A stretch of DNA of 64,000 nt from Campylobacterota bacterium (GCA_020633995.1 JACKCO010000003.1:585503-649502); one strand, 5' to 3'; shown: positions 25,800-29,428, counted from the stretch's first letter. The notes: a model not told the origin generated them from the letters alone. Numbers and translations are program-made.

Positions 25800-26981
25800 T
25801 CAAGAAAAGAGAAGTGGTTGATTGCAAAAAAAATTAGCTTTGTTCATCTTCTGAGTCATGTCTTTGATAAAAATAAGCCTTTGAATGAACAGAGCATTGA
25901 AAATTGAGGAACTCTCATATTTTCCCAAAGCATCTTTGTGTCTTTCAAAAATAGAAGAAAGTATAAATTTTATTGAGGGCGTCAATTGAAAATCTCTTTC
26001 ATAAGCTAGGGACTTGAGCAATGTTTGTTGTTCTTGGTCTGTGAGTTTATTTGTGAGGAGTTCGATGGTGTCAAGATCTATGTTTTCTTGCTTCATGGCG
26101 AAAACAACTGGGCTATCAGTATACGTGGTAAACAAGCCTTGAGTTTCTAATGAAAGAAAACTTTTATGGCAGCAGTTATTAAGCATTTGCTTAAGAGTTT
26201 GGCCTTGCTTGTTTTTGCGTTTTTCGTGGTCGTAGAGTGGCGTGATATTACTTTTTTTTATTGTTTCAGCATTATTTTGTTTTATTGCTTGGTAAAGTTC
26301 CTTGACTTGCTGAAGAAATGGCGCCAAATAGAGAGCTGGATTACAGCCGCTTTGTAGCGCTTGTTTTACTAGTTGGTGTTCATACCAATCGCCTTTTCTA
26401 TTGGGTGTTGTGTGAATTAAATCTTCGTTTATAACAACGTTTGAACTTGGTTGTGGCTCTGTTGTATCAAGTTGGTTAAAGGTGACAGTACGAGATTTTT
26501 TTAAAGGGGACGATTGTTTGATCGGTGATAGAGGAGCTCTTTTTCTTTTTTCTCCATTCTTACAAGGATTCGTTGGATCTTTGAGTTGGTTCTCCTTGTT
26601 ATTGGCTGTACCCTTTGTTTTGATTGGGCTTATTGAAAGTAGGGGTAGATACATTGAGCCCACATTCGTGTCAACTTTCTCATATCCAGGTGGGGTTCCT
26701 AGTTCGATTGAGCAGCCTGTCAAAACTGTTGTGCCATCGAGCGTGTCAGACTCATTTGCTATGGTGCTCTGATCTGAGGCATCTGCAAGTAGCGTTGCTT
26801 TGTCGAGAAATGATGAGTCATTAACCTCTGTTGTTTGTTCAAGAAAAGATAGCTCATTTTGGCTGCTCGTATTCAACACAGTTGTTTGATCAAGATACGA
26901 AGATTCTCCTCGTTCTGCACAAAAAAGTTGCATTGAATATCCGAAAGTGATTATGAAGACAAATTTTATATAAAGTTTCAT
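25800..26981 (-). CDS. Secreted protein with acidic LDQTT repeats, an ISPIK motif, a KRKR basic patch and an unknown C-terminal domain
   Basis: Signal MKLYIKFVFIITFGYSMQLFCAE. Repeats YLDQTTVLN / FLEQTTEVN / FLDKATLL. Then ISPIKTKG...GEKRKRAPLSPIKQSSPLKKSR. Shares its N-terminal module with 28955-29428. Confidence 0.65.
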   Translation of the reverse strand: MKLYIKFVFIITFGYSMQLFCAERGESSYLDQTTVLNTSSQNELSFLEQTTEVNDSSFLDKATLLADASDQSTIANESDTLDGTTVLTGCSIELGTPPGYEKVDTNVGSMYLPLLSISPIKTKGTANNKENQLKDPTNPCKNGEKRKRAPLSPIKQSSPLKKSRTVTFNQLDTTEPQPSSNVVINEDLIHTTPNRKGDWYEHQLVKQALQSGCNPALYLAPFLQQVKELYQAIKQNNAETIKKSNITPLYDHEKRKNKQGQTLKQMLNNCCHKSFLSLETQGLFTTYTDSPVVFAMKQENIDLDTIELLTNKLTDQEQQTLLKSLAYERDFQLTPSIKFILSSIFERHKDALGKYESSSIFNALFIQRLIFIKDMTQKMNKANFFCNQPLLFS

Positions 26982-27190
26982 AGATTCCTGTTATTTATTT
27001 TTTAAATGCTTGCCTGCTTATATTTTAATTATCTCTATTTTAGTAAAAAATTGGATTGCGATTATAACGATAATTGGCATGAGTGCAAGAAATGTTTTAA
27101 AAAGACAATTTTTGCATTGTTCTGAGTAGGAAAGCGCTTTAAAATGAGTGGTGTTGGATAGAAAGTTTGAAGAGAAAAGAAAGGTATGTA

Positions 27191-27853
27191 ATGAAAAAGT
27201 CTGTGTTCATCGGTGTAATTTTGTTGACTTTAGGATTAGGTTTGAGTGTAGTTGAAGCTGCAAAAGAAATAGAAATTAAATTTCAGCTTTCCAAGAAAGA
27301 TGAAGCATTGTTTGTTGTATGGCTGGAGTGTAACAACGAGTTGTATGAACAGCAAAAGCAGATTGAAAATTATTTAAACAATCCAGATGAATCGTTCTTT
27401 GAAGAGAGTAAATACGGGTATATTGATGCATTGACTGCACTGCGTGTACGAGAAACTGATTCTGGCTCATGGTTGTGTATGAAAAAGGGCAATGTTGATC
27501 CAGTTACAGGACACACTCTTTCAAAAGATGAGCATGAAACATTGATTGAAGATCCCCAAGAAACGATTTTGATTTTTGAAAAGCTTGGCTATACCGAAAA
27601 AATTCTTGTCAAAAAAGATCGCCAAATCTACAAATACAGTGACTTTGAGGTGATAATTGACGATGTTGAGGGATTAGGCAGGTTTTTTGAGGTTGAGCTT
27701 AAGAATGGCTGTCAAGATGCGGCTGAGGGGCTTGCCAAAATTAAATTATTTCTTAAGTCTGTAGGGCTCAAGTCAATTAAGCAGTTTGAGCGTAGTTACA
27801 TACATATGTTTAAAAACCCAGGCTACGACTTTAGTCACGAAGTTATTTTGTAG
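27191..27853 (+). CDS. CYTH (triphosphate tunnel metalloenzyme / CyaB-like) domain protein with signal peptide
   Basis: MKKSVFIGVILLTLGLGLSVVEA signal, then the EXEXK signature EIEIKF, then LRVRE and GRFFEVELK typical of CYTH. ATG 27191 is preferred over the track's TTG at 27167. Confidence 0.75.
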   Translation: MKKSVFIGVILLTLGLGLSVVEAAKEIEIKFQLSKKDEALFVVWLECNNELYEQQKQIENYLNNPDESFFEESKYGYIDALTALRVRETDSGSWLCMKKGNVDPVTGHTLSKDEHETLIEDPQETILIFEKLGYTEKILVKKDRQIYKYSDFEVIIDDVEGLGRFFEVELKNGCQDAAEGLAKIKLFLKSVGLKSIKQFERSYIHMFKNPGYDFSHEVIL

Positions 27854-27868
27854 GACTCAATTGTTTGA

Positions 27869-28732
27869 CTACTGTTTTGAGAGAGCCTGTAAGCGCTTAA
27901 TTCTTTTTGCTACTGCCGGATGCCTTCTGAATGTTGAAAAAAGCAGACTTGTTTTCATGAACCAAGAACTCAGTCGTGAAGAAAAAGAAGCATTGCTTGG
28001 TGCTTTGCACATGGTGTTTATTTCAGAGGTAATATTTTTGGTAATATTGCTCATAACATGGTGAACGTTTGGCAGGTTAAGATCATCAAAGCATTGCAAA
28101 GAGAATCTATCAGCTCGGTACTCTAAATGCCTGAAGTAAGCTGCAAGTAGGATATGTTTGAGAGAGAAATAAGTGAGCACTCCTGCAGGGATTATAAGGA
28201 TTCGAGGCTCTAGGAAGCCTGTCACCAGAAAGAATCGTGCAACTGCATAAAAGAGTGAGAAGCGGGCGGTCATGTCAAGCATGAGCGTGGGGTAATGTGT
28301 CTTGGCAAGTATTTGGAAGCGGTTGTCGTGTAGGTGTCCAACTTCGTGAGCAAGTATTCAGTTAAACTGTTGTACAAGTGCTGAATGGTTTGGCGCGGAG
28401 ACTTTCAGGATTGTTTCCCTCATAAATTGCGCACCAATGATGATGCGTGTAGCTCCGTTGACCATGAGCTGCGCTTCAGCTTGATGGTTTTGGATTCCCG
28501 CAAAGATAATGAAGATGTCCGGTTTTGCTGTGCATGAGAGTGAGGCAAGGTGTTGCTTCATAATACCATCGAGCAGATTATAAAGCGTGGTATGCATTGT
28601 TGACCAATTTTGTATGAGATGTTTTTCAAGTTCGTTAAGTTCATGCGCTGCTTGTATGAGCGTCTCAATATCAAAAATTGCTTGCACTTGTGGTGATTTA
28701 TTGCTTGTTTGCATTTTATTATGTTCCCCCAA
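27869..28732 (-). pseudogene. M48-family zinc metallopeptidase interrupted by a single in-frame TGA (28358-28360)
   Basis: Track ORFs 28358-28732 and 27869-28282 are in the same frame. The translation reads ...ALVQQFN*ILAHEVGHLHDNRFQILAKTHYPTLMLDM..., giving HEVGH, then EYRADRFS about 70 aa later and HPAVAKRIKRL near the C-terminus. Confidence 0.75.
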
Positions 28733-28954
28733 TGAACAAAAGTATTGTTTTGCATAAAGTCTGAACTGTCAGGCTATCATAATCATTTGGGAGCGCAACT
28801 GGTAGGTATGTCCTTTTTGTGAGTATGTGGCAAATGTTTAGCAGGTTTAATTTGAAAATGGTTGTGAAGAAATGAGGGCCACAAAAAAAGTGGCCCTTCA
28901 TCTTATTGATTACTGTTCTTGAATAATTCGGTTTTTACTTTTCTAAAAGTAGGC

Positions 28955-29428
28955 TTAATTTTCACCATCACGTTTTCTTTTTTTAGAAAGATCCGGGTTA
29001 GGTTTGATGGGACTGATATTAGGAACGGGTATTCTCTTTCGCTGAAAATCAGCAATTACTTCTTCGTATTCCAGAGGGGCTTGATCAGATTCATTATCGA
29101 TTATTTGAGTTGTTTGGTCGAGTAATCTTTCCAAACTATCCTGATCCTGGTTGAGGCTTTCATCAATTATTTGAGTCGGCTCCTCCATAATTGACAATTC
29201 AGTTGGTCGCTCAAAAAACAAGTCATCCAGACTGTCCTGCCCATCGTCTTCGCCAATTATCTGAGTTGCTTGTTCCATGATTGACAGCTCAGATGGCTGT
29301 TCAAAAACGGGTTCATCGCTTGAGTTGAGCTCTGTTGATTGGTCCAAAATAGGATCATTTTCTGCGCCAAAAAGCGTGAGTGATATGCTAAAAATGCTGA
29401 ATAATAAGAGTTTTGTACTATTTTTCAT
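28955..29428 (-). CDS. Small secreted acidic-repeat protein with an ISPIK motif and a C-terminal KKRKR patch
   Basis: Signal MKNSTKLLLFSIFSISLTLFGAE, LDQSTELN, two ~30-aa repeats (FE(Q/R)P(S/T)ELSIME..TQII...DSL), then NISPIKPNPDLSKKRKRDGEN. Confidence 0.65.
   Translation of the reverse strand: MKNSTKLLLFSIFSISLTLFGAENDPILDQSTELNSSDEPVFEQPSELSIMEQATQIIGEDDGQDSLDDLFFERPTELSIMEEPTQIIDESLNQDQDSLERLLDQTTQIIDNESDQAPLEYEEVIADFQRKRIPVPNISPIKPNPDLSKKRKRDGEN
29084..29305 (-). repeat. Intragenic tandem repeat (about 2.4 copies of a ~90-96-nt unit)
   Basis: Protein-level units FEQPSELSIMEQATQIIGEDDGQDSLDDLF, FERPTELSIMEEPTQIIDESLNQDQDSLERLL and DQTTQIIDNESDQ. The similarity is visible in the DNA as well. 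Confidence 0.7.

Follow-up and report, generated by a model that had tools for sequence, protein, structure and literature searches.

Two orphan paralogues of a Dependentiae genome as candidate Sec-exported, host-directed proteins with nuclear-localization-like patches

Listeria monocytogenes LntA and Chlamydia trachomatis CT311 are nucleomodulins secreted through the Sec pathway. The tandem repeat proteins (TRPs) TRP32, TRP47 and TRP120 of Ehrlichia chaffeensis are not known to carry an N-terminal Sec signal. They belong to an obligate intracellular bacterium, work by short-motif mimicry and reach the host nucleus (PMC5895000, PMC3417381); they are type 1 secretion substrates (PMC3417381), and TRP120 contains four nearly identical 80-residue repeats (PMC5895000). 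Cultured Dependentiae live as parasites inside protist cells and reportedly export a very large share of their proteome via Sec signals (PMC6561590). In the cultured member Chromulinavorax destructans, which replicates in the host cytoplasm, signal sequences occur on 44% of coding sequences, a set enriched in orphan genes (ORFans) and in ankyrin proteins considered to be effectors (Deeg et al., 2019; PMC6561590). Here we describe a long and a short paralogue, both hypothetical proteins, encoded in a 64,000-nucleotide (nt) stretch of DNA catalogued under a Campylobacterota bacterium (GCA_020633995.1 JACKCO010000003.1:585503-649502; hereafter the window, in whose coordinates all positions are given). 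We tentatively read the pair as Sec-exported, largely disordered, host-directed proteins with eukaryote-type linear motifs, for which importin-alpha-dependent nuclear import would be the leading mechanism. This is a well-documented hypothesis concerning two orphan genes, both from one metagenome-assembled genome (MAG), not the discovery of a function. The two open reading frames (ORFs) and their elements are as follows.

25800-26981, minus strand: long paralogue, ORF of 393 residues (NCBI H6679_02490, hypothetical protein)
26916-26981, minus strand: signal-peptide-like N-terminus of the long protein, residues 1-22, MKLYIKFVFIITFGYSMQLFCA, then E after the presumed cleavage site; basic n-region and 14-residue hydrophobic core (heuristic)
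26694-26915, minus strand: acidic, Ser/Thr-rich disordered region of the long protein, residues 23-96, holding the L(D/E)x(T/A)T repeat in four degenerate copies
26616-26693, minus strand: conserved block of the long protein, residues 97-122, PPGYEKV-x10-LPLLSISPIK, defined by alignment, with synonymous differences inside
26490-26555, minus strand: basic patch of the long protein, residues 143-164, GEKRKRAPLSPIKQSSPLKKSR, resembling class-1 and bipartite nuclear localization signals (NLSs) and holding SPIK, SPLK and one PxSP
25803-26471, minus strand: C-terminal region of the long protein, residues 171-393, predicted helical, with no family or PDB match
28955-29428, minus strand: short paralogue, ORF of 157 residues (NCBI H6679_02510, hypothetical protein)
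29363-29428, minus strand: signal-peptide-like N-terminus of the short protein, residues 1-22, MKNSTKLLLFSIFSISLTLFGA, then E after the presumed cleavage site (heuristic)
29078-29362, minus strand: strongly acidic disordered region of the short protein, residues 23-117, with a unit of ~30 residues in about 2.4 copies
29000-29077, minus strand: conserved block of the short protein, residues 118-143, PLEYEEV-x10-IPVPNISPIK, defined by alignment, with synonymous differences inside
28970-28984, minus strand: KKRKR patch of the short protein, residues 149-153, class-1 NLS-like and four residues from the C-terminus

The TRPs are acidic, Ser-rich, disordered repeat proteins; the pair, whose acidic Ser/Thr-rich regions hold degenerate repeats, appears similar in kind, and by analogy it is such acidic disordered repeat nucleomodulins that the pair would functionally most resemble. 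The two groups nevertheless part on three points. The TRPs leave by type 1 secretion, whereas the pair bears signal-peptide-like N-termini; the repeats of TRP120 are nearly identical, whereas those of the pair are degenerate (75% identity for the best pair at the DNA level); and no sequence homology to TRP32, TRP47 or TRP120 was found, as the searches of protein clusters and representatives described below returned self-hits only. What the pair would share with LntA and CT311 is the combination, in small secreted proteins of intracellular bacteria, of an N-terminal signal peptide and basic determinants for nuclear targeting. It resembles neither in sequence, and LntA is a compact, helical, basic protein of experimentally shown function, while the two described here are acidic, disordered repeat proteins of proposed function. 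The closest setting, at the level of the phylum, is that of the ORFan secretome of C. destructans: with signal peptides by heuristics, no Pfam, NCBIfam or PDB match and no homologues, the pair fits a predicted Sec-dependent ORFan secretome of this kind. The C. destructans set is itself defined by prediction only, contains no homologue of the pair, and has no nuclear-targeting or kinase-site motifs described for it (PMC6561590).

The pair appears, from the searches made, to belong to no known sequence family. A word-indexed search of 5.8 billion clustered proteins with the long protein matched only the protein itself. A profile of both N-terminal modules run against the same clusters returned only the short protein and missed the long one, the parent of its first alignment row, apparently by a quirk of the word prefilter, which can thus skip obvious members. 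Exhaustive HMMER comparison with 1.84 billion representatives, in turn, matched only the query, and two metagenome DNA scans yielded no homologue. Pfam and NCBIfam gave nothing above noise for either protein, and the PDB sequences gave no significant match. Within the window, no further paralogue was found among the ORFs, and the other signal-peptide orphans at 55924-56847, 57072-57830 and 36108-37088 are unrelated to the pair. Since no homologue emerged from any searched collection, the "family" of which a preliminary description of this DNA had spoken comes down to exactly two members, both in one genome, and the word was overstated.

That the two proteins are true paralogues, similar beyond what composition would give, is shown by pairwise comparison. 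BLASTP aligns them at 30% identity over about 120-145 residues (E 3e-9), and phmmer, run against all 684 six-frame ORFs of the window, recovers for each protein only its partner (E about 1e-3). With the signal peptides removed, the mature N-terminal modules reach a Smith-Waterman score of 86; shuffles preserving composition score 32.5±5.5 with a maximum of 61 (z 9.7), and none of 2000 attains 86. The order of elements is also common to both: signal peptide, acidic repeats, a tyrosine, 18 residues, ISPIK and a basic patch. Of 43 identical residues with degenerate codons, 24 (56%) are encoded by different synonymous codons, and such differences occur inside LDQxT, YE.V, ISPIK and KRKR, the 26-residue block included. 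This extent of synonymous divergence marks the duplication as old, with the motifs held by selection on the peptides and not by recent gene conversion or copying. The motifs have thus been conserved under purifying selection, as judged from a comparison of the two paralogues only.

Each N-terminus opens with MK..K, continues with a 14-residue hydrophobic core and closes with LF(C/G)A before the E at which the mature protein would begin; in the long protein, this c-region ending in A before E resembles those of other export-tagged proteins of the window. A lipoprotein signal was considered and rejected because a lipobox is missing: QLFC of the long protein is not one, and the short protein has no cysteine. 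The LxCxE pattern, known for binding Rb, that appears in LFCAE of the long protein (residues 19-23; 26913-26927, minus strand) was likewise treated as chance, because it lies within the c-region of the signal peptide and the paralogue reads LFGAE. The acidic regions that follow differ in strength. Residues 23-96 of the long protein are 19% Asp and Glu and 31% Ser and Thr, with a net charge of -12 and repeat cores LDQTT, LEQTT, LDKAT and LDGTT; residues 23-117 of the short protein are 29% Asp and Glu, with a net charge of -26 and cores LDQST, FEQPS, MEQAT, MEEPT and LDQTT. The unit of the short protein can also be seen in the DNA as two 59-nt copies (29159-29217 and 29249-29307) at a spacing of 90 nt and 75% identity, with a partial third. 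Tandem Repeats Finder reported no repeat there, as the copies are too degenerate and fall below its threshold.

Beyond the repeats, the 26-residue block, of consensus P..YE.V-x10-[LI]P...ISPIK, aligns without a gap, and the distance from the tyrosine (YEKV in the long protein, YEEV in the short) to ISPIK is exactly 18 residues in both. The charge changes along each chain: the acidic N-terminal parts have isoelectric points (pI) of 4.19 (long, residues 23-144) and 4.05 (short, residues 23-126), and the basic tails have pI values of 9.30 and 10.53, respectively. On a charge-hydropathy plot, the long protein up to about residue 195 and the short protein in its entirety fall on the disordered side. 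In all this, the preliminary description had been a faithful guide. Its two minus-strand ORFs were correct in coordinates and strand, and the shared N-terminal module, the signal peptide ending F(C/G)AE (at the level of heuristics), the acidic Ser/Thr-rich repeats, the short protein's unit of ~30 residues in about 2.4 copies, and the (G/E)YE(K/E)V element followed by ISPIK were each recovered.

The Kosugi consensus for class-1 monopartite NLSs is KR[KR]R or K[KR]RK. It is matched, as a pattern, by KRKR at residues 145-148 of the long protein and by KKRKR of the short one, so the basic patches claimed earlier are present in both, and the further claim that such K-(K/R)-x-(K/R) clusters fit a classical NLS holds at the level of the pattern. 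The long protein contains in addition a bipartite match, KR-APLSPIKQSSPL-KKSR, which conforms to KR-x12-K[KR]x[KR]. In shuffles that keep composition, the class-1 pattern arises in the long protein with p 0.008 and the bipartite pattern with p 0.0046; the two overlapping class-1 matches of the short protein were never reproduced (0/20000). Elsewhere in the window, reading through the listed basic runs, the class-1 pattern was seen in 1 of 64 other ORFs. The linker of the bipartite match holds S-P-I-K, S-P-L-K and one P-x-S-P, and the first two belong to a wider cluster in the long protein of consensus sites of the type recognized by cyclin-dependent (CDK) and mitogen-activated protein kinases, [ST]-P-x-[KR]. 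Four such sites are found there (S118, S152, S158 and T192; p 0.0003 by shuffling), one in the short protein (S139), and about 9 in the ~18.5 thousand residues of the rest of the window. Two occurrences of [ILV]SP[ILV]K were met in none of 20000 composition-keeping shuffles. Phosphorylation of these sites is what the consensus would predict. In yeast Swi5 and the SV40 large T antigen, composite NLSs and CDK sites form switches in which phosphorylation gates importin binding. The arrangement in the long protein, KR-x12-KKSR with S-P-I-K and S-P-L-K in the linker, is of the Swi5/SV40 type as a pattern only, and the short paralogue, with a single SP site and a monopartite patch, is unlike these switches.

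At NCBI the source MAG goes under the name "Epsilonproteobacteria bacterium" (locus tags H6679_; both genes on a contig of 728,521 bp), a label that looks wrong. Among the best hits of the methionyl-tRNA synthetase (MetRS) encoded at 18706-20667, those from named MAGs of Candidatus Babeliales, Dependentiae and TM6 are 58-64% identical to it; named hits from outside the Dependentiae reach 46% at most. The gene upstream of MetRS keeps its synteny in the closest loci (L002-L007 and L017), as found by comparing 20 window proteins with 52 fetched loci by tblastn. On this identity pattern together with the synteny, the source genome is assigned to the Dependentiae, in all probability to the Babeliales. 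Because cultured Dependentiae are intracellular parasites of protists that reportedly export so large a share of their proteome through Sec, a host-directed role for the pair is reasonable. In the same tblastn comparison, the 52 Dependentiae loci contained no counterpart of the long gene, of the short gene, or of most of the ~12-kb block in which both lie.

In the reading that we tentatively prefer, two anciently duplicated, lineage-specific genes of a Dependentiae (Babeliales) parasite living inside protists would act as follows. Each product would be exported by Sec through a cleavable N-terminal signal peptide and then released into the host cell, via vesicles or some other passage of the outer membrane. 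The mature proteins would be mostly intrinsically disordered, presenting first their acidic, degenerate repeats rich in Ser, Thr and Gln and, downstream, the 26-residue block and the basic patch, both of which resemble eukaryotic short linear motifs. In what would be the likeliest specific mechanism, mimicry of host motifs, KRKR or KKRKR would pass with host importin-alpha for a classical signal of nuclear import (a bipartite one in the long protein), and host proline-directed kinases might phosphorylate the flanking S-P-x-K sites and so modulate import of the long protein, which would also deliver a helical domain of ~200 residues. The nucleomodulin likeness drawn in the preliminary description stands in part: paralogy, signal-peptide-like N-termini, the NLS consensus and the Dependentiae setting speak for it, "family" does not survive with only two members, and the idea is compatible with the sequence evidence.

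Several observations weigh against nuclear targeting. The export and NLS calls are heuristics and pattern matches, residue -3 of the presumed cleavage site is an atypical Phe, and passage across the outer membrane and into the host is a step that we infer. NLS-like patches are common in ordinary bacteria, where about 100-200 proteins in each genome score positive with NLStradamus (PMC13311002). This genome is AT-rich and Lys-rich, and 7 other ORFs of the window contain runs of 4 basic residues. Nor are the two patches at aligned positions: the long protein has its patch 23 residues past ISPIK, the short one only 6. Searches of Pfam, NCBIfam and the PDB detected no DNA-binding, chromatin-modifying or other nuclear-type domain, and no searched collection holds an orthologue in which conservation of the motifs could be checked. 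A bolder form, that this is the first nucleomodulin family of the Dependentiae and that its entry into the nucleus is gated by host proline-directed kinases through a composite of the bipartite NLS, the two S-P-x-K sites of its linker and the conserved ISPIK block, seems to us quite improbable; if true, a bacterial parasite would couple the localization of an effector to the host cell cycle. Dependentiae are widespread, almost wholly uncultured protist parasites with very large predicted secretomes and without a characterized effector, and the pair is a concrete candidate for asking whether they reach the host nucleus and use eukaryotic motif mimicry.

A signal peptide proves Sec targeting only, and Sec is the only secretion-system signal visible. 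Both facts suit envelope or surface proteins, an explanation that strikes us as somewhat doubtful but serious: exported to the periplasm or outer membrane, the pair would serve as disordered acidic spacers or adhesins whose basic patch binds lipopolysaccharide, peptidoglycan or polyanions of the host surface. The XBBBBX motif of the Cardin-Weintraub type is a polyanion-binding motif, and EKRKRA and SKKRKRD both fit it. Free C. destructans cells, moreover, show dense periplasmic material (PMC6561590). Against such a role, neither Pfam nor NCBIfam gave a beta-barrel, lipobox, anchor or peptidoglycan-binding domain; structural components of the envelope are usually conserved within a lineage, whereas the pair has no relatives even in other Babeliales; and the enrichment of S-P-x-K (p 0.0003) has no obvious meaning in the periplasm.

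The best-conserved element of the pair is the 26-residue block, not the basic patch, and this favors host-directed effectors with a non-nuclear task, which we regard as rather unlikely. Here YE(K/E)V...ISPIK and the basic patch would make host contacts of other kinds. The candidates are YxxPhi sorting, docking of the LIR or SH2 type, attachment to acidic phospholipids, and dibasic cleavage by a Kex2/furin-like protease of the host, which would part the acidic N-terminal portion from the C-terminal domain. YxxPhi and [WFY]xx[LIV] are cores of sorting-type and LIR-type motifs, respectively, and YEKV and YEEV fit both. KRKR of the long protein, for its part, sits where the chain passes from acidic (pI 4.19) to basic (pI 9.30), and what C. 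destructans remodels is chiefly the mitochondrion and the membranes of its host (PMC6561590). These motifs, however, are looser still than the NLS patterns, and no recognizable membrane-binding or enzymatic domain was found in Pfam or NCBIfam. Cleavage after KKRKR would take only four residues off the short protein, for which it would make no sense, and furin/Kex2 processing is therefore retained only as one part of this explanation.

That the two are decaying or non-functional orphan ORFs of a fast-evolving accessory block, with motif likenesses due to low-complexity chance, is very improbable. In its favor, homologues are missing from every searched collection, a truncated HtpX/M48 remnant lies between the genes, the repeats are degenerate and of low complexity, and AlphaFold2 gave no confident fold. 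Against it, the ORFs are intact (393 and 157 residues) at 38-39% GC and come with ribosome-binding sites, sites resembling promoters and a terminator-like hairpin, their GC contents follow those of neighboring genes, and motifs and exact spacing have been kept across saturated synonymous sites, 56% of the identical residues having different synonymous codons.

Both ORFs look like real genes. Each uses its first possible start codon, preceded by a Shine-Dalgarno sequence, AGGA at 7 nt upstream in the long gene and GGAGG at 6 nt upstream in the short one. The short gene is headed by a sigma-70-like promoter (29508-29481; 10/12 match, extended TG) and followed by a terminator-like hairpin (28897-28875) 58 nt beyond its stop codon. 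Upstream of the long gene, TTGCAC-16-TATAAT was read by eye; it is absent from the list of the promoter scan because its -35 hexamer matches only 3/6. Overall GC and GC at third codon positions (GC3) of both genes resemble those of their neighbors in a region of 38-39% GC.

The C-terminal region is what sets the long protein apart. By charge and hydropathy, residues 196-393 plot with folded proteins, and a single-sequence AlphaFold2 model of residues 171-393 is all-helical but unusable (pLDDT 34.6, pTM 0.19). The sole lead from the PDB was the SH3 domain of Fgr (E 0.16-0.17 over 36 residues), whose second half is resembled by the stretch DLIHTTPNRKGDWYEHQLVKQALQSGCNPALYLAP (residues 179-214; 26339-26446, minus strand), with GDWYEHQ...CNPALYLAP in the long protein aligned to GDWWEAR...CIPSNYVAP in Fgr. 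With a profile made from 10 SH3 sequences the match came to 7.2 bits, when the best among 2000 shuffles reached 7.0, and it spanned only the C-terminal half of the domain, leaving out the half with ALYDY and the RT loop; Pfam SH3 did not match the long protein. The candidate was rejected, and the resemblance is probably due to chance.

The block surrounding the pair, 20790-32775, looks like a lineage-specific accessory or effector island rich in signal-peptide proteins. It corresponds to the ~12-kb interval between MetRS and an SDR gene (32777-33640); in two related loci (L009 and L010), the SDR homologue lies just 0.8-3 kb from MetRS. The block opens with three tandem paralogous class-I S-adenosylmethionine (SAM) methyltransferases (20790-23475, plus strand; 287, 288 and 285 residues), each with a signal-peptide-like N-terminus. 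Signal peptides are unusual on enzymes of this class and suggest exported methyltransferases. Three tandem paralogous polytopic membrane proteins follow (23515-25287, minus strand; 201, 192 and 159 residues), two of them 44% and 26% identical to the first, with no family match. On the same strand, the long gene and a NUDIX hydrolase gene immediately precede this trio, with gaps of 11-83 nt, and a terminator scan that reached down to 25500 showed none separating the long gene from the NUDIX gene; the long gene, the NUDIX gene and the trio may form one operon. Farther along are a CYTH protein with a signal peptide, the HtpX/M48 remnant, the short gene, an AlaX-like protein and an ankyrin protein with a signal peptide. 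The remnant (27869-28282, minus strand), an ORF of 137 residues between the two paralogues, aligns with no more than the C-terminal third of the HtpX/M48 zinc protease profile (positions ~189-294 of 298), lacks HEXXH, and is probably a truncated gene.

Signal-peptide-like N-termini are found, by heuristic, on about a third of the ORFs of the window, on proteins that include ankyrin, WD40, CYTH, M17 aminopeptidase and methyltransferase types. Among these are types that are normally cytosolic: an M17 leucyl aminopeptidase (37274-38947, minus strand), a WD40 beta-propeller (42263-43450, minus strand), the CYTH protein (27167-27853, plus strand), the ankyrin-repeat protein (30322-31251, minus strand) and the SDR (32777-33640, minus strand). 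Signal peptides on such proteins are consistent with the very large secretomes predicted for Dependentiae. A T2SS-F/PilC-type gene is located at 49949-51175. The window also carries a class A RNase P RNA (7335-7730, plus strand; 221 bits), which runs over the final ~74 nt of the ORF at 6920-7408, and two tRNA clusters, of 2 genes at 34850-35020 (minus strand) and of 3 genes at 51585-51931 (plus strand).

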